This document shows, one piece after another, positions 4-15,508 of a stretch of 64,000 bases of DNA. How positions within the stretch are numbered: the first letter of the stretch is position 1; each line of letters opens with the position of its first letter. The position numbers were made by a program, and so were the translations under genes. The DNA is taken from NCBI GenBank assembly GCA_965203445.1, contig OZ241883.1, positions 1,440,001 through 1,504,000 on the forward strand, written 5' to 3'. Source of the DNA: Candidatus Oxydemutator sp. GTDB lineage: Bacteria > Pseudomonadota > Gammaproteobacteria > Poriferisulfidales > Oxydemutatoraceae. The notes below the pieces were generated by a model. The model searched no databases. It was not told the origin of the DNA and was given only the letters and a program-made list of their open reading frames with translations.

Positions 4-603
4 ATGTCGGCAGACGAAGCATTTGACTTTGTCGCATGTTTTGTCGAATACCGCAAGGCATTTATTCTCCTGAGAGAATATGATGAAAAAGTAGAAAGGG
101 AACAAGCTGGATCAGAAAACAGAGAAACAGAAGCGCCGGACATAGAAAAGCTTTATCTGATCATTGAAGAATTTAAGGCATGTTTAGCGTCGTGTGGTGA
201 AAATGTAGCCAAGTTCGGTGTTCCCAATAACGGGCGTTTGGATCAGGTTGTTCATAACCTGTACCAGACCTGGGATCAGGAAGAACTGTATCCGGGTCTG
301 GAGAATAAGGCGGCACACCTTTTTTACCTCTTGATAAAAGACCATATTTTTGTCGACGGCAATAAGCGGATCGCCTCTTTCCTGTTTCTCTGGTTTATAG
401 AACGCCACGATATGTTGGTCGGATCGAGAGATGAAAGAACAATCCCATATAATATCCTCTATGCACTTGCTATCCATGTTGCAGAAAGTGATCCCAAGGA
501 CAAAGATACGAATGTCCAACTCATTTGCAACATTATTGCAAGTTATTCGACATTCCTGCCAAGCGACCTGCCTGCGGAAATGCCGGGAGAACAAGAAAAA
601 TGA
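4..603 (+). CDS. Fic/Doc family protein (RhuM-Fic-like C-terminal part; may be 5'-truncated by window edge)
   Basis: Doc-type Fic motif HIFVDGNKRIA, preceded by ELYPGLENKAAHLFYLLIK. Confidence 0.8.
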   Translation: MSADEAFDFVACFVEYRKAFILLREYDEKVEREQAGSENRETEAPDIEKLYLIIEEFKACLASCGENVAKFGVPNNGRLDQVVHNLYQTWDQEELYPGLENKAAHLFYLLIKDHIFVDGNKRIASFLFLWFIERHDMLVGSRDERTIPYNILYALAIHVAESDPKDKDTNVQLICNIIASYSTFLPSDLPAEMPGEQEK

Positions 604-908: not shown

Positions 909-2036
909 ATGAGAACTTATCATTTGTTCATCAGTCATTCCTGGACGTATACCGATCACTACAAAAATTTGGTCAATCTTTTGAATCAAGCAAGATCTTT
1001 CGGTTATCGCAATCTCTCGATCCCTAAGGATGATCCTGTACACAGTAGTACAGGTAAAGAGTTGTCCTCGGCAATCCGCAACAAAATGGAGTCATGCGGT
1101 GTTGTTATAGTTTTAGCGGGTGTATATGTTGGCTACAGCAAATGGATAGACAAAGAGATTAAAATTGCCCGAAGTGGCTTTTCAAAACCCAAGCCGATTT
1201 TGGTTATAGAACCCTGGGCAAGTAAGAGGACCTCCAAGATGTCGCCACGCGAGGCGGTCGAATATTTCCAAGACAAAAGCTACGCGGTTTCGGAAAATTG
1301 GTGGAGCATTTGGCTTGAAGCCAATGCGCGCGCATTCACGGTCGCCAAGGCTACCAAACTAAGCGTCCTTGCCGAGATTCGCGGAGCGCTCGCCGAAGCG
1401 TCGGTGGAGGGGACAACCGAGCGCGAGTTTGTCAAAGCGCTGAAGCCGCGCCTGCAAAAACTCGGGTGGTGGGGTCGTCGTGCCGACGGGCAGATGCTCG
1501 GTTCGTCACGGCGCCTGGAGACGATATTCCGCACCAACATGGCGTCGTTCTACAACGCCAGACGCTGGCGCGAACAGGCGCGCCGCGCCATGGCTTCCGT
1601 CGGCGCGCGCCCCTATCTGCAATATGTCGCGGTGCATGATCTCAGCACCCGGCCCTCGCACGCAGCGTTGCACGGCAAGGTGTTTCCGCACGATTCCAAG
1701 TTCTGGGATGCGTGGTATCCGCCCAACGGCTTCAACTGCCGCTGCCGCGTGCGCGCGCTGACCGAGGATCAGGTGCGGCGCAGGAAGCTGAAGGTGGAAA
1801 AGGACTTCGAGCTGCCGGAGATCCAAAGGCAGGTCGGGATAGACCGCGCGACCGGCAAAGTGATACGCCGACCGGTGCGCGGGTTCAGGGGGCGCGACGC
1901 CGCCGGCAAGCCGATAACGATAACACTACCTCCGGGATTCGACTACAACCCTGGAAAAGGTGCTAGAAATAATGCCGATAAAATCGTCGAGTGGAACACC
2001 GATAGCATTGTTTCGGCGATAAAGGAGTTGGCCTAG
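909..2036 (+). CDS. ThsB-like (MTH538/DUF1863) TIR-domain protein with in-frame inserted phage Mu gpF (MuF) domain
   Basis: TIR motifs YHLFISHSW, SKWIDKEI (catalytic Glu), KPILVIEPW and terminal ADKIVEWNTDSIVSAIKELA. Between them (about 1239-1961) MuF motifs ARAFTVAKAT, LQKLGWWG, RRLETIFRTN, TRPSHAALHG, YPPNGFNCRCRV, GFDYNPG. Confidence 0.85.
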   Translation: MRTYHLFISHSWTYTDHYKNLVNLLNQARSFGYRNLSIPKDDPVHSSTGKELSSAIRNKMESCGVVIVLAGVYVGYSKWIDKEIKIARSGFSKPKPILVIEPWASKRTSKMSPREAVEYFQDKSYAVSENWWSIWLEANARAFTVAKATKLSVLAEIRGALAEASVEGTTEREFVKALKPRLQKLGWWGRRADGQMLGSSRRLETIFRTNMASFYNARRWREQARRAMASVGARPYLQYVAVHDLSTRPSHAALHGKVFPHDSKFWDAWYPPNGFNCRCRVRALTEDQVRRRKLKVEKDFELPEIQRQVGIDRATGKVIRRPVRGFRGRDAAGKPITITLPPGFDYNPGKGARNNADKIVEWNTDSIVSAIKELA

Positions 2037-2485
2037 TGGCCGAAAACAAACAGGAACTCTTGGAAATCTACAAACTCCACGCCGAACTCGCAGACCGGGT
2101 GAGTCAGAGGCGGGAAGGCGCGAACCGACTTTATGTAAGTTTGTTGACGGGCTTCCTAATTCTCCTGGCTGCTTTGCTCAGATTTGGGACGGGAATAATG
2201 CTTGTTTGGGTTGTATTAGCCATGTCTGGCGCTTTAGGCCTCGTGCTTTCCGCGTCATGGTATATTATTATCCGATCTTACCGTCAGTTGAATAGCGGCA
2301 AGTTTAAGGCGTTACATGAATTAGAAGGGGAACTGGCCTATCCTTTCTTCAAACGCGAATGGGAGTTGCTGGAAAAAGGGAGAGAGATAAGCCGTTATTG
2401 GAAATTGACAGTCGTTGAGACGTCTCTCCCCATCGGTTTTTTTGCTCTTTCCATTGGCTTAATAATTATCGCTATTGTAATTTAA
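2036..2485 (+). CDS. Small multi-TM membrane protein (RipA-like family), putative effector
   Basis: YKLHAELADRVSQRREGANRLY, two TM helices, SYRQLNSGKF, C-terminal TM; GTG overlaps the TAG of the TIR gene. Confidence 0.7.
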   Translation: MAENKQELLEIYKLHAELADRVSQRREGANRLYVSLLTGFLILLAALLRFGTGIMLVWVVLAMSGALGLVLSASWYIIIRSYRQLNSGKFKALHELEGELAYPFFKREWELLEKGREISRYWKLTVVETSLPIGFFALSIGLIIIAIVI

Positions 2486-2643: not shown

Positions 2644-3495
2644 ATGGGACCACTCGACGATTACATAAAGGAGCAGCTCGACAATCACATTGTCGAAATT
2701 GGGTCACAATTGGGTAACACTGACACAATATCAATAATAAGTCCCATTGTGTCTGGTGTTGATACAAGGGTCAGGCATGGCATCGAAATGATCCAAACCA
2801 AGAAAAGCAAGATAGCAATCATTCTGCACACCCCCGGGGGCATCGTTGAGATTGTTGAGAGGATAGTTGAGGTAATCAGAAATTTTTATGCTGAAGTTAT
2901 AGTTATTGTGCCGGATCAGGCAATGTCGGCAGGAACCGTTTTAGCATTGAGTGCTGACAAGATAATGATGGACTATTTTTCACGGCTGGGCCCTATTGAC
3001 CCTCAGATCCCTAAAGACGATAGGCTTGTCCCGGCATTGTCTTATTTGAATCAGTATGAAAGGTTGAATGAAAAAGCCCGGGAAGGCCATTTGACCACGG
3101 CAGAATATGCAATGCTTCAACAGCTCGATGTAGGCGAACTATACCAGTTCGAGCAGGCCCGCGAGCTTTCAGTAGAACTCCTGCGCAAGTGGCTGTCGCA
3201 ATACAAGTTTAAAGATTGGATAACTACAGAAAGTAGAAAAGTGCCAGTTACAGAAGAAATGAAGCAAGAACGAGCCAAAGAGATCGCTGATTTATTAAAT
3301 AATCCTGAAAGGTGGCATTCTCATGGACGTGGGATTGGTATTGATACTTTAAGGAACGAGTTGAACTTGAAAATTGAGGACTACTCGGAAAAATCGCAGT
3401 TATCGGACAGTATAAAGAATTACTTTAATCTTTTGGTGGATTACCTGACCCGAGAAAAAGTAAACTCTTTTGTGCATGCAGGGAGGTATTTTTGA
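2644..3495 (+). CDS. SDH-family ClpP-fold serine protease
   Basis: Motifs LHTPGG, AMSAGTVLALSADKIMM, LGPIDPQ, WHSHGRGI. Confidence 0.8.
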   Translation: MGPLDDYIKEQLDNHIVEIGSQLGNTDTISIISPIVSGVDTRVRHGIEMIQTKKSKIAIILHTPGGIVEIVERIVEVIRNFYAEVIVIVPDQAMSAGTVLALSADKIMMDYFSRLGPIDPQIPKDDRLVPALSYLNQYERLNEKAREGHLTTAEYAMLQQLDVGELYQFEQARELSVELLRKWLSQYKFKDWITTESRKVPVTEEMKQERAKEIADLLNNPERWHSHGRGIGIDTLRNELNLKIEDYSEKSQLSDSIKNYFNLLVDYLTREKVNSFVHAGRYF

Positions 3496-3497
3496 TC

Positions 3498-3692
3498 ATG
3501 TCGAATGAATCTGAAAAAAAATATCAAACTGGTGATGAGATATTGGGGAATAACCCGAAAGTATCCAAGCGAGTTGTTGCCCAGTATCGTAAGTTGGAAA
3601 AGCAGTTGGAGAAGCTTGGTGTAGATACAAAACCGCATTACACGTTATCTCCACCGCTTGGCGGAACTATTGCTGGTTTATCAAAGAAATAG
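3498..3692 (+). CDS. Small basic hypothetical protein
   Basis: GGGAGG RBS at 3481-3486; packed between protease stop and methyltransferase start. Confidence 0.6.
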
Positions 3693-3693
3693 T

Positions 3694-5259
3694 TTGAAGA
3701 AATCTCTCAAAATTACTCCCGTTAAGGGACGTCCGATGCTGCATTGGGTGGGGAAGAAGCCGCTGGACGTGGTGCGGTATTTTCCGGCGCAGTTGTGCGA
3801 GAGCGTGGGGGTGGACAAGCCGCCTGCCGAGGCGTCGTACGAGCAATTTGTCGAAGGGGGCTATAACCTGCTTTATCACGGCGACAACAAGGAGATTTTG
3901 TCGTCATTGCTGGTGGCCGGGTTTCGCGGCCAGGTGGATTTGATCTACATTGATCCGCCGTTTGACAGCGGTGCGGATTACGTGCGTCGCGTGAAATTGC
4001 GCGGTGTGGGGAACGGCAATAACAGCAACGGCGAGAGAATCTCCGGCGAGGGACAGTCGCCGGTCGAGCAGGTCCAGTACCACGACATCTGGGCCAATGA
4101 CAATTATTTGCAGTTCATGTATGAGCGGCTGATTCTGATGCGGGAGTTACTGAGCGATAAAGGGAGCATTTATCTGCATTGTGACTGGCACAAAAGCCAT
4201 CACTTGCGGTTTTTGTTGGATGAGGTGTTTGGGGCGGAGAATTTTATTAACGAGATCATCTGGCACTATCCTAATTCTGGTAAATTAGTAACAAGCGTTT
4301 GGCGCATCCCAATGTTGAATATTGGGCATGAACGCCTTAATTTCCCCACCCAAAAGCCCGAGGCCTTACTCGAGCGCATCATCAAAGCCTCGAGCAACGA
4401 GGGTTCCATCGTTCTCGACTGTTTCTGCGGCAGCGGCACGACGGCCGCGGTCGCCGAGAAGTTGGGGCGTCGCTGGATTATGGCCGACCTCAATAAAGGC
4501 GCGATTCAAACCACTATGAAACGTTTGCAGGACGTCGTCGCCGACAAGAACGGCGACCTTGCGGAGGAGCCCGCGCGCGGCTTCATTCACTACCGCGTCA
4601 ACAACTACGACTACGCCAGACAGGACGAGTTGAAAAAGATCGTCATCTCCAAGTATGGCGTCCGCAAAGACAACGGCGATTTGTTTTTTGACGGCAGAAT
4701 CGGCGAGCAACTGGTCAAAATTATTGACTTGAACCGGCCGTTCACGCGCCTGGACGTTCAGATTATCAAGGACGAGTTGGCCCAAAACCGCCCGGACGAG
4801 ACGCGCGATATAGTGGTTTTCTGCAACGGCAGCGAGATGGAGATTATCGTCGAGCTGGCCAGGGAGAAAAGCCCGATCAACAAGATCATCGTGCGCGACA
4901 TTCAGCGCGACGGCGTAACCACCGACCACCCGGCCGAGGCGGACGTATCCATTGTCAAACGCGGAAAGAAGGCGAAAATCACCATCGCCGAGTACATCAG
5001 CCCGTCCATTCTGGCGAGAATGGAGATAGACCGGACTTTGTTTGACGAGCAGATTGACGATTTCCGCGCCCAGATTGACTGCGTGCTGATAGACACCGAC
5101 TACAACGGCAGGCACTTCAACGTTGTGGAAAGCGATCTGCCGGCGAAGAAAAACGATTACGTGCGGGGCGAATACGAGGTCGCGCTTCCTCGTCCCGGCG
5201 CCGCCGTGGCGGTGAAAATCACCGATATGTTGGGCGAGGAAACGGTTGTTACCGGATAG
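3694..5259 (+). CDS. Beta-class DNA methyltransferase, type III Mod-like, central segment apparently deleted
   Basis: IYIDPPF (motif IV) precedes [14 protein letters not shown] and DCFCGSGTT (motif I); C-terminal [11 protein letters not shown]; TTG start inferred from the duplicated 5' copy. Confidence 0.8.
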
Positions 5260-12505: not shown

Positions 12506-13387
12506 GTGAAGGCGTCGCCGTCCGCCGCGAGCGTCTGGCCCGCGCCCGCCAAGCTGAATCTTTTCCTGCACGTCACCGGACGCCGCGCCGACGGGCGCCA
12601 CGACTTGCAGACGCTGTTTCAACTGCTCGATTATTGCGACGAAATCACGATAGCCGCGCGTGCGCGCGGCGGCGTGCACGTCGAATGCGACGCCGATATT
12701 CCGCCCGCCGACAACCTCGCGCGCCGCGCCGCGCTGCTGCTGAAGGACGCGACCGGCACGTCGCGCGGCGCCTTTGTTACGGTCGCAAAGCGCATACCGC
12801 AAGGCGCCGGTCTCGGCGGCGGCAGTTCGGATGCGGCGACGGTGCTGCTCGCGTTGAACCGGCTTTGGGAATGCGGGCTTGAGCGCCGCGATCTGGCGCG
12901 TCTCGGCGCGCGTCTCGGCGCCGACGTGCCGGTCTTCGTCGGCGGGCGCAGCGCCTGGGCCGAAGGCACCGGCGAGCGGCTGTCGCCGATGGAACCGCCG
13001 CCGCGATGGTACGCGGTGTTCGTTCCCGCCGTCGTGGTCTCGACCCGCGAGATGTTCCAGGCGCCCGACCTGCGCCGCGACTATCCGAGCGTGACGCTTG
13101 CGGACTACCGCGCCGGCGCCACCGTCAACGTCTTCGAGGAACTTGCGGCGGCGCGCCATCCCGAGATTGCGCGCGGCCTGGACTGGCTGAGCGGCCACGC
13201 ACCGGCGCGGTTGACCGGCACCGGCGCCGCTTTCTACGCCGCTTTCGAGCGCGAAGAGCAGGCCGGCGCAGTCCTCGCGCGCAGGCCCGCCGGACTTGGC
13301 GGCTTCATCGCGCGCGGCGTCGCCGAATCGCCGCTGCACCGCAGATTGGGCGAAAGATTGGGCGAAATCGGGGCCGACGGGCTATAA
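12506..13387 (+). CDS. ispE: 4-diphosphocytidyl-2-C-methyl-D-erythritol kinase
   Basis: PAPAKLNLFLHV, KRIPQGAGLGGGSSDAA, LGADVP. Confidence 0.95.
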   Translation: MKASPSAASVWPAPAKLNLFLHVTGRRADGRHDLQTLFQLLDYCDEITIAARARGGVHVECDADIPPADNLARRAALLLKDATGTSRGAFVTVAKRIPQGAGLGGGSSDAATVLLALNRLWECGLERRDLARLGARLGADVPVFVGGRSAWAEGTGERLSPMEPPPRWYAVFVPAVVVSTREMFQAPDLRRDYPSVTLADYRAGATVNVFEELAAARHPEIARGLDWLSGHAPARLTGTGAAFYAAFEREEQAGAVLARRPAGLGGFIARGVAESPLHRRLGERLGEIGADGL

Positions 13388-13398
13388 TTGGCACGGGT

Positions 13399-13473
13399 TG
13401 GGCCGTCGCCAAGTGGTAAGGCACCGGGTTTTGATCCCGGCATTCGCAGGTTCGAATCCTGCCGGCCCAGCCA
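13399..13473 (+). tRNA. tRNA-Gln(TTG)
   Basis: Cloverleaf TGGGCCG...CGGCCCA-GCCA; anticodon loop TT-TTG-AT; TATAAT at 13383. Confidence 0.96.
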
Positions 13474-13494
13474 CTTTCTACTCCGCGCACGTCT

Positions 13495-14457
13495 ATGGAT
13501 TCTCACGCAGCGACGATGTCGGTTTTCTCCGGCGGCGCCAATCGCGCGCTGGCCGAGAAAATCGCGGGCGCCATCGGCCTGGCGCTCGGGCGCGCCACCG
13601 TCGGACGTTTCAGCGACGGCGAGGTGCAGGTCGAGATCCACGACAACGTGCGCGGGCGCGACGTGTTCATCGTGCAGCCGACGTGCGCGCCGACCAACGA
13701 CCACCTGGTGGAATTGCTGATCATGATAGACGCGCTGCATCGGGCGTCGGCGGGGCGCATCACCGCGGTCATTCCGTATTTCGGCTACGGGCGCCAGGAC
13801 CGGCGCGCGCACTACATGCGGGTGCCGATCTCGGCCAAGGTCATCGCCAACGTCATCAGCAGCGTGCAGGCCAACCGCGTGCTGATAGTGGATCTGCACT
13901 CCGACCAGGTGCAGGGGTTTTTCGATCTGCCGGTGGACAACGTCTATGCGTCGCCGGTGCTGCTCGAGGACATCCGCGCGCGCAACCACGACGACATGAT
14001 CATCGTCTCGCCCGACGTCGGCGGCGTGGTGCGCGCGCGCGCGCTGGCCAAGCGTCTCGACGACGCCGGCCTTGCGATCATAGACAAGCGGCGCCCGCGG
14101 CCGAACCAGAGCGAGGTCATGAACATCATCGGCGACGTCGCCGGCAAGTCGTGCGTGATCATTGACGACATCGTGGATACCGCCGGCACTCTGTGCGAGG
14201 CCGCGGCCGCGCTGAAAGAGCAGGGCGCGGTCAAGGTGCTGGCCTACGCGACCCACCCGGTGCTTTCGGGCGGCGCCGTCGCGCGCATCGCCGCCTCGGC
14301 GCTCGACGAACTGGTCGTCACCGACACGATTCCGCTGTCGCCGGACGCGGCCCAATGTGCGCGCATCCGCCAGATCAGCATTTCCTCGATGCTGGCGCAG
14401 GCGATACAGCGCATCAACCGCGAGCAATCCATCAGCAGCCTGTTCATGGATCTGTAG
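13495..14457 (+). CDS. prs: Ribose-phosphate pyrophosphokinase
   Basis: [41 protein letters not shown]. Confidence 0.97.
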
Positions 14458-14568
14458 AGCGGCGGCGTTTGCCGGCGCAGCGGCCTGACAGCGGCGCGCG
14501 GATGGAGTATCATGCGCCGCCGCCCCACTTGGGGAACAAGAGGACGCGGGAACGACGGGGACAAAGAC

Positions 14569-15234
14569 ATGCAAAAAGAATTTGAAATCAGCGCGCGGCC
14601 GCGCGACGACGTGGGCAAGGCCGTAAGCCGCCGTATGCGCGGCGCCGGTCTGGTGCCGGCGGTGGTGTACGGCGGCAAGGGCGAGGCCGTGTCGCTTGCG
14701 CTCAAGCACAGCGAACTGGTGCAGCACCTGGAGCACGAGGCGTTTTATTCGCATATCCTGACGCTCAAGGTCGGTGCCAGGCAGGAGAAGGTCATCCTGC
14801 GCGACCTGCAACGCCACCCGAGCGAACCGCGCGTGCTGCACGTGGACTTCATGCGCGTTACCACCGACCAGCGCATCACGATGAACGTGCCGCTGCATTT
14901 CATCAACGAGGACGCCTGCATCGGCGTCAAGCAGCAGGGCGGTATCGTAAGCCACCTGCAAACCGAGGCCGAAGTCTCGTGCCTGCCGCAGGACCTGCCC
15001 GAGTACATCGCGGTCGACATCGAGAAACTGGAACTCGGCCACTCGTTGCACCTGTCCGACGTAACGCTGCCCGAGGGCGTGACCCTGGTCGCGCTGACGC
15101 ACGGCGAGGAAGCCGACCACGCGATAGTGTCGGTCATCAAACCGCGCGTCGCCGCGATGGAGGAAGAGGAAGCCGCGGCCGAGGGGCAGGCCGAGGAAGG
15201 CGCCGCGGAGGAGAAGGAGGGCGACGACAAGTAA
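14569..15234 (+). CDS. rplY: 50S ribosomal protein L25/Ctc
   Basis: GKAVSRRMR, VPAVVYG, LHVDFMRV, acidic tail. Confidence 0.95.
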   Translation: MQKEFEISARPRDDVGKAVSRRMRGAGLVPAVVYGGKGEAVSLALKHSELVQHLEHEAFYSHILTLKVGARQEKVILRDLQRHPSEPRVLHVDFMRVTTDQRITMNVPLHFINEDACIGVKQQGGIVSHLQTEAEVSCLPQDLPEYIAVDIEKLELGHSLHLSDVTLPEGVTLVALTHGEEADHAIVSVIKPRVAAMEEEEAAAEGQAEEGAAEEKEGDDK

Positions 15235-15250
15235 CGGAGGTTTTTCTCGA

Positions 15251-15508
15251 ATGGATCCAAAACAAGAAATTGTAGACAAAAACTATGCCGCTTTCCGCAA
15301 GGCATTGCCCGGGATTATGCAGCAGCAGGCCGGCCGCTTTGCGCTGATGCGGCACGCCGAGATCGTTGATTTTTTCGATACCGCGGCCGATGCGGTCACG
15401 ACCGGAAAACATCTTTACAAAGACGGCGAATTTTCGATCCAGAAAGTAACGCAAACGCCCATCAATCTTGGGCGCTTCTCGTATGCCGGGTATTGGGGAG
15501 TTCGATAA
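15251..15508 (+). CDS. Small hypothetical protein (DUF5678-like)
   Basis: GGAGG RBS; GRFALMRHAEIVDFFDT...FSIQKVT pattern. Confidence 0.55.
   Translation: MDPKQEIVDKNYAAFRKALPGIMQQQAGRFALMRHAEIVDFFDTAADAVTTGKHLYKDGEFSIQKVTQTPINLGRFSYAGYWGVR

Follow-up and report, generated by a model that had tools for sequence, protein, structure and literature searches.

Can a bacterial antiphage receptor acquire a new sensor by taking a phage structural domain into its own fold, or is such a chimera simply an accident of recombination? This question is raised by a single open reading frame (ORF) of Candidatus Oxydemutator sp. (Gammaproteobacteria), found at positions 909–2036 of a 64,000-nucleotide (nt) stretch of DNA (GenBank assembly GCA_965203445.1, contig OZ241883.1, positions 1,440,001 to 1,504,000, forward strand); this whole stretch is referred to as the window. 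The ORF encodes a small TIR protein of the ThsB type, known from Thoeris antiphage systems, with a MuF domain of phage head proteins embedded in it. An earlier note, made from the DNA letters, had proposed that the phage domain was captured as an integrated sensor or bait. The evidence examined here bears out the insertion itself, and it leans towards a recent illegitimate capture of phage DNA and away from an established architecture.

A MuF domain within a TIR fold

The ORF and its parts are as follows.

909–2036, + strand: whole chimeric ORF (P0001), 375 residues, made up of the TIR N-terminal part, the MuF insert, the TIR tail and the stop codon TAG (2034–2036)
909–1238, + strand: TIR N-terminal part, residues 1–110, with strands A–D and the catalytic E83 in WIDKEI
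1239–1958, + strand: inserted MuF domain, residues 111–350, 720 bp, GC content 0.625, GC content at third codon positions (GC3) 0.75
1959–2033, + strand: TIR tail, residues 351–375, with GARNNAD, strand E (KIVEW) and helix E (TDSIVSAIKELA)
1239–2036, + strand: alternative product of 265 residues (P0002), MuF plus TIR tail, from an internal ATG; this is the annotation of the source gene caller

In an alignment with uninserted TIR proteins of 135 residues, the TIR sequence ends with ...EPWASKRTSK at residue 110 and picks up again at GARNNADKIVEW... (residue 351); the resumed end, residues 351–375, reads GARNNADKIVEWNTDSIVSAIKELA. The uninserted homologue P0123 is continuous over this site (...ERTSQGARDNADKIAKW...), its two sides meeting as ...ERTSQ-GARDNADKIAKW... 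in the alignment. Because the break falls between residues 110 and 351, the insert comprises residues 111–350, nt 1239–1958. The flanks add up to 110 + 25 = 135 residues, which is the modal length of the homologues, and zero TIR residues are missing. The earlier note had thus correctly described a break after EPWASKRTSK and a clean in-frame insertion whose flanks join to a TIR of normal length. It had placed the insert at about 1239–1961, with about 240 residues; start and length stand, but the end lies at 1958, as G351 belongs to the TIR. What it took for the insert's 'own Met' is a conserved internal MuF residue in KM(P/E)PREAV, and homologues are 11–12 residues longer at the N-terminus. ATG 909 is taken as the start of the ORF because homologues begin MK(T)YHLF; an alternative TTG start lies upstream, at 885. 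At the level of sequence, the chimera is confirmed as an in-frame insertion within a TIR rather than an end-to-end fusion.

Pfam recognises both parts. ThsB_TIR (PF08937, DUF1863) matches residues 7–106 (E 2.7e-14; 53.8 bits against a cut-off of 21.2; profile positions 1–99 of 100), and Phage_Mu_F (PF04233) matches residues 156–281 (E 3.2e-24; 86.3 bits against a cut-off of 29.6), so that the profile searches proposed earlier recover both domains. The insertion site is the connector between the fourth (D) and fifth (E) TIR strands and not a domain end; it is not demonstrably a neutral loop. Lys codons stand at both junctions (AAG 1236–1238 and AAA 1956–1958). An intein or other self-splicing element was considered and rejected, as the insert begins MSP and ends NPGK followed by G, with no matching junction residues. 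A MuF toxin with swapped ends was likewise dismissed, as the flanks make exactly one TIR.

The TIR portion belongs to a well-populated family and is intact. Residues 1–110 are up to 81% identical to uninserted 135-residue TIRs (81% for P0122). Against proteins of 30–205 residues they gave 1451 matches from 1455 candidates; among the matches listed, nearly all have 134–137 residues. Judged against 47 homologues, the TIR keeps 39/39 columns conserved at ≥95% and 45/48 at ≥90%. E83 is among those kept and is an invariant column of the 48-sequence alignment, which upholds the earlier assignment as a ThsB/DUF1863-type TIR with an intact catalytic Glu. Five PADLOC ThsB models match the TIR of the chimera at E ≤ 1e-3, and Foldseek aligns it with the ThsB structures 8wcf, 9b7d, 6lhy and 8fz9 at a probability of about 1.0 over about 105 columns. 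The profile of the uninserted family also matches the DUF1863 TIR-like protein MTH538 (1EIW; E 2.4e-5) across the region with the insertion site; this relationship is distant, and MTH538 has neither the insert nor a known defence role.

Whether the split TIR can still fold was addressed with AlphaFold2 (AF2) and two alignments: A4, with 36 rows from both families, which is noisy in its last 19 columns, and A6, with 48 rows from TIR proteins only. Three further two-family alignments (A2, A3 and A5) were left unused, as MAFFT drew MuF N-termini onto the TIR. With A4, the mean predicted local distance difference test (pLDDT) score is 72, and both the TIR core and the MuF part fold; residues 352–375 are unplaced (pLDDT <40), exactly where A4 is noisy. 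With A6, the TIR core reaches pLDDT 86–95, and residues 356–375 (about 95) form a strand (358–361) and a helix (364–374). On the earlier question of whether the TIR refolds, the two models differ: the tail sits on the core with the TIR-only alignment and is unplaced with the mixed one. Restoration of the fifth strand and last helix with A6 indicates compatibility in a model and is not proof, as A6 itself ties the tail to the core. Both parts are folded by AF2, but in separate models. The fold of the insert matches viral MuF/head-morphogenesis models in BFVD (Foldseek, top E 2.5e-16); a Foldseek search of the PDB gave no solved structure for the MuF part, and neither the chimera nor the protein of the downstream gene, 8xMP (see below), had a sequence match there.

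The most mundane explanation of such a protein is a chimera of assembly or sequencing, with junctions that are absent from the DNA of the organism. The genome is apparently a metagenome-assembled single contig, and GC content changes sharply at both junctions, as an artefact might produce. Against this stands a Logan contig of run X1 (3340 nt, depth 30.4), which matches 861–2700, and hence both junctions, free of differences and gaps. As X1 probably derives from the source sample, the contig amounts to an independent re-assembly and not to a second sample; it crosses both junctions, which excludes an assembler artefact. Contigs of three runs (X1, X2 and X3) hold no alternative joint across 1239–1958, with the qualification that contigs drop rare variants. 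From X2, a run of the same sample, and X3, which belongs to another study, there are only short pieces, which leave the junctions uncovered. Both junctions are in frame with no residue lost, which also speaks against an artefact. Taken together, an artefact is extremely improbable. Separately, one piece from X3, a 151-nt contig at depth 2, is identical to the 8xMP gene (window 2102–2252).

Donor and occurrence of the chimera

The whole protein was compared with 5.8 billion clusters, giving at least 120 matches; all those listed carry PF04233, most also carry PF18810 (PBECR2), and they cover only the middle 59–71% of the query. Among the matches listed, two MuF-PBECR2 proteins come closest: P0003, with 70% identity, and P0257, with 87% identity across residues 241–351. 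Both run on past ...DYNPGK into ...WPRWDP... and then a PBECR2 domain. At the other end, close MuF relatives begin MPxKVDLALAFK ahead of KM(P/E)PREAV, the motif that opens the insert. The insert is thus trimmed by about 11 residues N-terminally, and its C-terminal cut, after NPGK, corresponds to the start of the effector linker in relatives. It is 43% identical to gene 30 (gp30) of phage D108. Its sequence thus identifies the insert as the MuF module of a MuF-PBECR2 head protein resembling Mu gp30.

Conservation within this module is high. Measured against 232 MuF homologues, it keeps 26/27 columns conserved at ≥95% and 36/39 at ≥90%; its rank in conserved-column retention is 14th–16th from the bottom of the 232, and at a threshold of 80% it is at the median. 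Two of the missed columns are S263 and K264. P0003 and P0257 share S263 and also do without the consensus Pro at 264, but they have Glu instead of Lys there; the local motif is DSEFW in both and DSKFW in the insert, both being off consensus.

Two ideas about the MuF part were discarded. A MuF polymorphic toxin does not fit, as MuF homology ends at NPGK and is followed by only 25 TIR residues, with no PBECR2 effector or other toxin domain C-terminal of MuF. The notion that MuF itself might be an ADP-ribosyltransferase (ART) fold was also dropped; the literature consulted describes ARTs only as fusion partners of MuF.

A plausible kind of donor is close by in taxonomic terms. A genome of the same genus (G002) contains a Mu-like head module, consisting of a portal fragment, a MuF-PBECR2 protein (P0005) and a gpG-like gene, whose MuF shares 59.5% identity with the insert; a donor of this kind was therefore at hand. 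The 2.38-Mb genome of the window contains no other MuF, the insert being the sole match, and no cognate portal. The neighbours of the chimera are an insertion sequence (IS) remnant, a Fic gene, 8xMP, an SDH protease gene and a restriction–modification methylase gene, with no portal/terminase packaging module adjoining. When DNA encoding P0003 and P0257 was sought, the nearest relatives of the MuF part on viral and metagenome contigs were only 33–48% identical.

Composition separates the two parts as sharply as homology does. GC content rises from about 0.42 to about 0.65, in line with the higher GC noticed at first sight. GC3 is 0.47 in the TIR flanks, equal to that of the TIR at a Latescibacterota locus (L011), and 0.75 in the insert, and the GC steps fall at the junctions. 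For other genes of the island, GC3 is 0.51 (8xMP), 0.46 (SDH), 0.44 (Fic), 0.49 (HORMA), 0.76 (res) and 0.73 (mod); the surrounding genome has 63–69% GC. The composition of the insert can be read as host- or phage-like and that of the TIR flanks as typical of a low-GC mobile island. Sharp steps at both junctions imply that the chimera is too young for its parts to have converged.

If the architecture were an established one, it should recur. Among the matches listed from the 5.8 billion clusters there is no second TIR+MuF protein; the single match at 71% cover is the window's own 265-residue P0002 (100% identity). A gene-caller miscall elsewhere would show as MuF plus TIR tail at about 71% cover, and only the window's protein does so. 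A phmmer search of 1.84 billion representatives gave at least 150 matches, all those listed being MuF only (about residues 105–367); a two-part protein should have outscored these. Searching the TIR part against proteins of 206–657 residues gave 7 matches from 48 candidates, none with MuF. Six of these 7 were inspected: five are ordinary TIRs with extensions resembling miscalled starts or read-through, and one, P0246, is a TIR–8xMP fusion.

At the DNA level, all genome loci found with P0122 (53/53) are uninserted; at 51/53 of them the match runs from residue ≤5 to ≥132 within 381–408 contiguous bases, and the other two are partial. At 80 viral and 46 metagenome loci the match is to the MuF part only, at 33–48% identity. 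Matches were found in 412 phage and 147 plasmid records, none of which covers ≥80% of the query, and an exact 28-mer over the 5' junction has no match in viral contigs. Independent homologues of the chimera thus did not appear in clusters, representatives, genomes, metagenomes, or viral, phage and plasmid collections: the chimera is a singleton. The domain was found neither to recur nor to be conserved in the receptor lineage, which is what marks integrated decoys. The literature searched turned up no described system with this architecture, in agreement with the earlier note; literature on integrated decoys yielded no bacterial TIR with a phage domain, and the passages of PMC9503650 contain no link between MuF and TIR.

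P0246 merits separate mention. This metagenome protein of 261 residues has a TIR to ...EPWGSEKTSI, fused directly to the C-terminal part of 8xMP (...EWEILERGKNTSRY...). It is another broken form of the cassette, apparently due to a deletion that starts within a few residues of the MuF insertion site.

Accident or sensor

Two features that flank the chimeric gene bear on its fate.

600–899, no strand assigned: IS remnant, internally deleted, with 18-nt inverted ends at 600–617 and 882–899; it ends 9 nt before the TIR start codon
2036–2485, + strand: 8xMP membrane protein, 149 residues (Pfam PF24838, E 2.3e-31); start codon GTG, which shares 1 nt with the TIR stop codon

The IS end replaces the region of the ribosome-binding site: close relatives have GAGGAG, and here only AGAAG precedes ATG 909. 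There is no sigma-70-like site between 600 and 909, and none inside 909–1238. To judge from these motifs, the expression signals of the full-length chimera look damaged. An AAGAGGA motif lies 8–14 nt upstream of the internal ATG 1239, which would permit another reading, namely that only the internal-start product of 265 residues matters. The N-terminal TIR part would then not be made, Thoeris-type signalling would be dead, and the free MuF with its 25-residue TIR tail could be inert or could compete with phage MuF for portal sites. The source gene caller annotated exactly this ORF; however, callers trained on a genome of 63–69% GC penalise the low-GC TIR part, so that this choice is weak evidence, and with no promoter-like site in the TIR part any transcript must begin upstream anyway. 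This reading is accordingly improbable, if less so than an artefact.

The account that is somewhat favoured starts from a Thoeris-like two-gene cassette, TIR plus 8xMP, whose TIR gene would have taken up 720 bp of a phage gene. The donor would be the Mu gp30-like MuF-PBECR2 gene of a high-GC phage, of the kind that infects the host lineage, and a single illegitimate recombination of microhomology type is the most likely route. The closest MuF proteins have Lys at both matching places (FK|M and PGK|), and the TIR family has one K or Q at the site. Crossovers at such short Lys-codon matches would give an insert divisible by three in length, so that the frame would be kept without selection. In the uninserted cassette, phage-triggered assembly of the TIR would produce a signal derived from nicotinamide adenine dinucleotide (NAD), which in turn would activate the 8xMP membrane effector and stop the infected cell. 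Anatomy, uniqueness, composition, context and the intact conserved residues are observed; the recombination mechanism, this signalling logic and the lack of adaptive value are inferred. The chimera is judged likely to be a neutral or function-impairing accident because it is unique and young, lies in an insertion-prone island and has damaged upstream signals; in addition, events of this sort will turn up by chance in a large scan whose flagged cases are all in frame and recognisable.

Several observations weigh against capture by accident. The insert corresponds to nearly one whole MuF domain, lacking only the N-terminal stretch and the part after NPGK; it lies in sense, is in frame at both ends and is lossless for the TIR, and by our estimate a random fragment would have suitable frame and orientation by chance in about 1 in 18 cases. 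Neither half shows decay (26/27 and 36/39 columns for MuF, 39/39 and 45/48 for the TIR). From sequence, a very recent event and constraint fit this equally and cannot be separated. AF2 folds the MuF, and with the TIR-only alignment it returns strand E and helix E to the core at pLDDT of about 95. The 8xMP gene is intact and tightly coupled to the TIR. By analogy, a portal-binding domain on a TIR also makes mechanistic sense, as it matches the activation mode that passages of PMC12847820 describe for SpbK.

These points feed the alternative of a working integrated sensor, in which MuF would dock on portal dodecamers or procapsids of Mu-like phages and cluster the TIRs, so that their signal opens the 8xMP effector. 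Published precedents lend it credibility. SPP1 gp7, a MuF protein, is a portal binder located in the capsid (PMC5576092); clustering on YonE, a dodecameric portal, activates SpbK, a bacterial TIR NADase (PMC12847820); and Thoeris ThsB proteins sense capsid proteins (PMC12578639). The domain is whole, with its conserved residues in place; neither the catalytic Glu nor any other invariant residue of the TIR is lost; AF2 folds each of the two parts; the partner gene is undamaged; and the same genus carries Mu-like phages with a related MuF. Yet no collection searched holds a second instance, and the lack of compositional blending means no long history under selection. The IS end abuts the start codon in place of the usual ribosome-binding site, and two stretches present in the closest relatives of the insert, the conserved 11 N-terminal residues and WPRW, are missing from it. 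The model made with A4 leaves the TIR tail unplaced (pLDDT <40), and the one made with A6 depends on its alignment. Moreover, strand E and helix E belong to the BE interface required for TIR activity, according to the same passages on SpbK; an insertion beside these elements could block assembly as easily as promote it (PMC12847820). A working sensor is thus unlikely, though well ahead of the internal-start and artefact readings. The same doubtful standing applies to the idea that a natural integrated-bait receptor of bacteria is seen here just as it arises, with MuF newly acquired from the host's phages. The proposal of an integrated sensor or bait has, by analogy, become mechanistically credible, and it is less likely than an accident.

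In the SpbK–YonE case a portal recruits and clusters a TIR enzyme; MuF being a natural portal ligand, the chimera could act alike. In SpbK, however, the portal is bound by the protein's own N-terminal domain ahead of the TIR, and SpbK is a stand-alone, NAD+-depleting effector that has been shown experimentally (passages of PMC12847820), whereas in the chimera the candidate portal binder is a phage domain inside the TIR, in a signalling-type cassette. The MuF head proteins and toxins (Mu gp30/F, SPP1 gp7; PF04233) are matched in identity (70–87% to MuF-PBECR2 proteins), conserved residues and predicted fold. Unlike them, the chimera is not in a prophage, holds the only MuF of its genome and lacks both PBECR2 and the N-terminal 11 residues; and where MuF is an N-terminal trafficking module in those proteins (passages of PMC5576092 and PMC5512222), it is embedded in another protein here.

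Plant nucleotide-binding leucine-rich repeat (NLR) receptors with integrated decoys, such as RRS1-WRKY, are a parallel in concept: there, too, part of an immune protein is borrowed from the opponent's interaction network. In plants, the integrated domain imitates what effectors target in the host, the arrangement is seen again in different lineages, and experiments support it. The domain of the chimera, by contrast, is viral in origin, is known from one instance and lies inside a catalytic domain. The integrated-decoy model of plant NLRs is cited in passages of PMC11702601.

The recognition of phages by bacterial TIR proteins is only starting to be understood, the known cases being ThsB, which senses capsids, and SpbK, which is clustered by a portal. 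Should the chimera work, it would mean that a single graft of a phage structural domain into a TIR is enough to create a sensor specificity, and the retargeting of Thoeris-type systems could follow a simple design rule. A chimera that does not work would still be a clean natural example of defence-island shuffling by in-frame capture of phage coding DNA, and a reminder that a striking architecture known from one instance should not be called a system until there is evidence of selection.

The TIR–8xMP cassette and its island

TIR and 8xMP form a conserved two-gene cassette. An 8xMP homologue is present at 37/53 uninserted TIR loci: directly downstream at 26, 0.7–1.9 kb downstream at 4, directly upstream at 5 and on the opposite strand at 2. 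The cassette ranges over Latescibacterota, Patescibacteria, Proteobacteria, Bacillota, Bacteroidota and archaea; with so wide a spread among bacterial and archaeal phyla, the uninserted pair is of interest on its own.

Its closest parallels are Thoeris types with membrane effectors. Yirmiya et al. 2025 (10.64898/2025.12.03.692087) describe 11 Thoeris types and 29 putative effector classes, and passages of the paper present II (ThsB with Macro-TM), V (ThsB with DUF2270/ThsF) and VII (ThsB with SLATT/ThsH) as types with membrane effectors. As in these, the present cassette lies in a defence island and pairs a small ThsB-type TIR that has a catalytic Glu with a small multi-pass membrane protein, and as a two-gene unit it is conserved across phyla. 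Unlike in types II, V and VII, the partner is 8xMP, for which Pfam gives 8xMP alone and no match to DUF2270, SLATT or Macro at E ≤ 0.1. In a comparison with the passages, it could not be matched to one of the 29 effector classes. None of the ThsB proteins described there has a foreign domain inside its TIR fold, as the present one does. PADLOC gave 0 matches for 8xMP, the 2023 release having no 8xMP model, and a literature search on 8xMP found no relevant paper among those listed. TIR + 8xMP is thus a candidate Thoeris-type system not matched to a named type.

Five Latescibacterota loci (L011–L014 and L018) have the order res–TIR–8xMP–mod, with Res proteins 69–71% identical to the 866-residue ResIII encoded upstream of the window (12782–15382 of locus L010); the Mod-type methylase gene lies at window 3658–5259. 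The order res–TIR–8xMP–mod could be a four-gene composite island or system, of which the window's island is a derived form with at least three insertions besides MuF. Between res and TIR it has an orphan HORMA gene, a Fic gene and the IS remnant; five or more longer copies of this IS, 81–91% identical, occur elsewhere in the genome. Between 8xMP and mod, an SDH/ClpP-like protease gene (2644–3495) and an ORF of 66 residues precede mod. On either side of the protease cassette lies a 54-nt copy of the 5' end of mod (2489–2542 and 3696–3749; direct repeat, 85% identical), and the cassette looks like an insertion into the 5' region of mod.

Relatives show similar events. Insertions of 0.7–1.9 kb separate TIR and 8xMP in the Latescibacterota loci L012 (3405–5344), L013, L014 and L018, and they contain a DDE transposase (IS), a PIN-like ORF and a small antitoxin-like ORF. 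The res–TIR–8xMP–mod island family is one that often takes insertions.

Some minor observations concern the same genes. The orphan bacterial HORMA gene (PF18138, E 1.6e-37; L010 15367–15888) has no CD-NTase visible nearby. The Fic/DOC protein encoded after it (L010 15935–16603, window 4–603) matches the PADLOC candidate PDC-S23 (E 1.6e-43). At L017, a protease 71% identical to that of the window lies beside a mod remnant, and L012 retains a duplicated 31-residue start of 8xMP. The window's own 2.38-Mb genome has seven further ThsB_TIR matches (G000:C1, about 1,031,750–1,033,505; 917,372; 1,209,095–1,217,624); three of them cluster near 1.03 Mb, and four start long open frames of 440–1135 residues.

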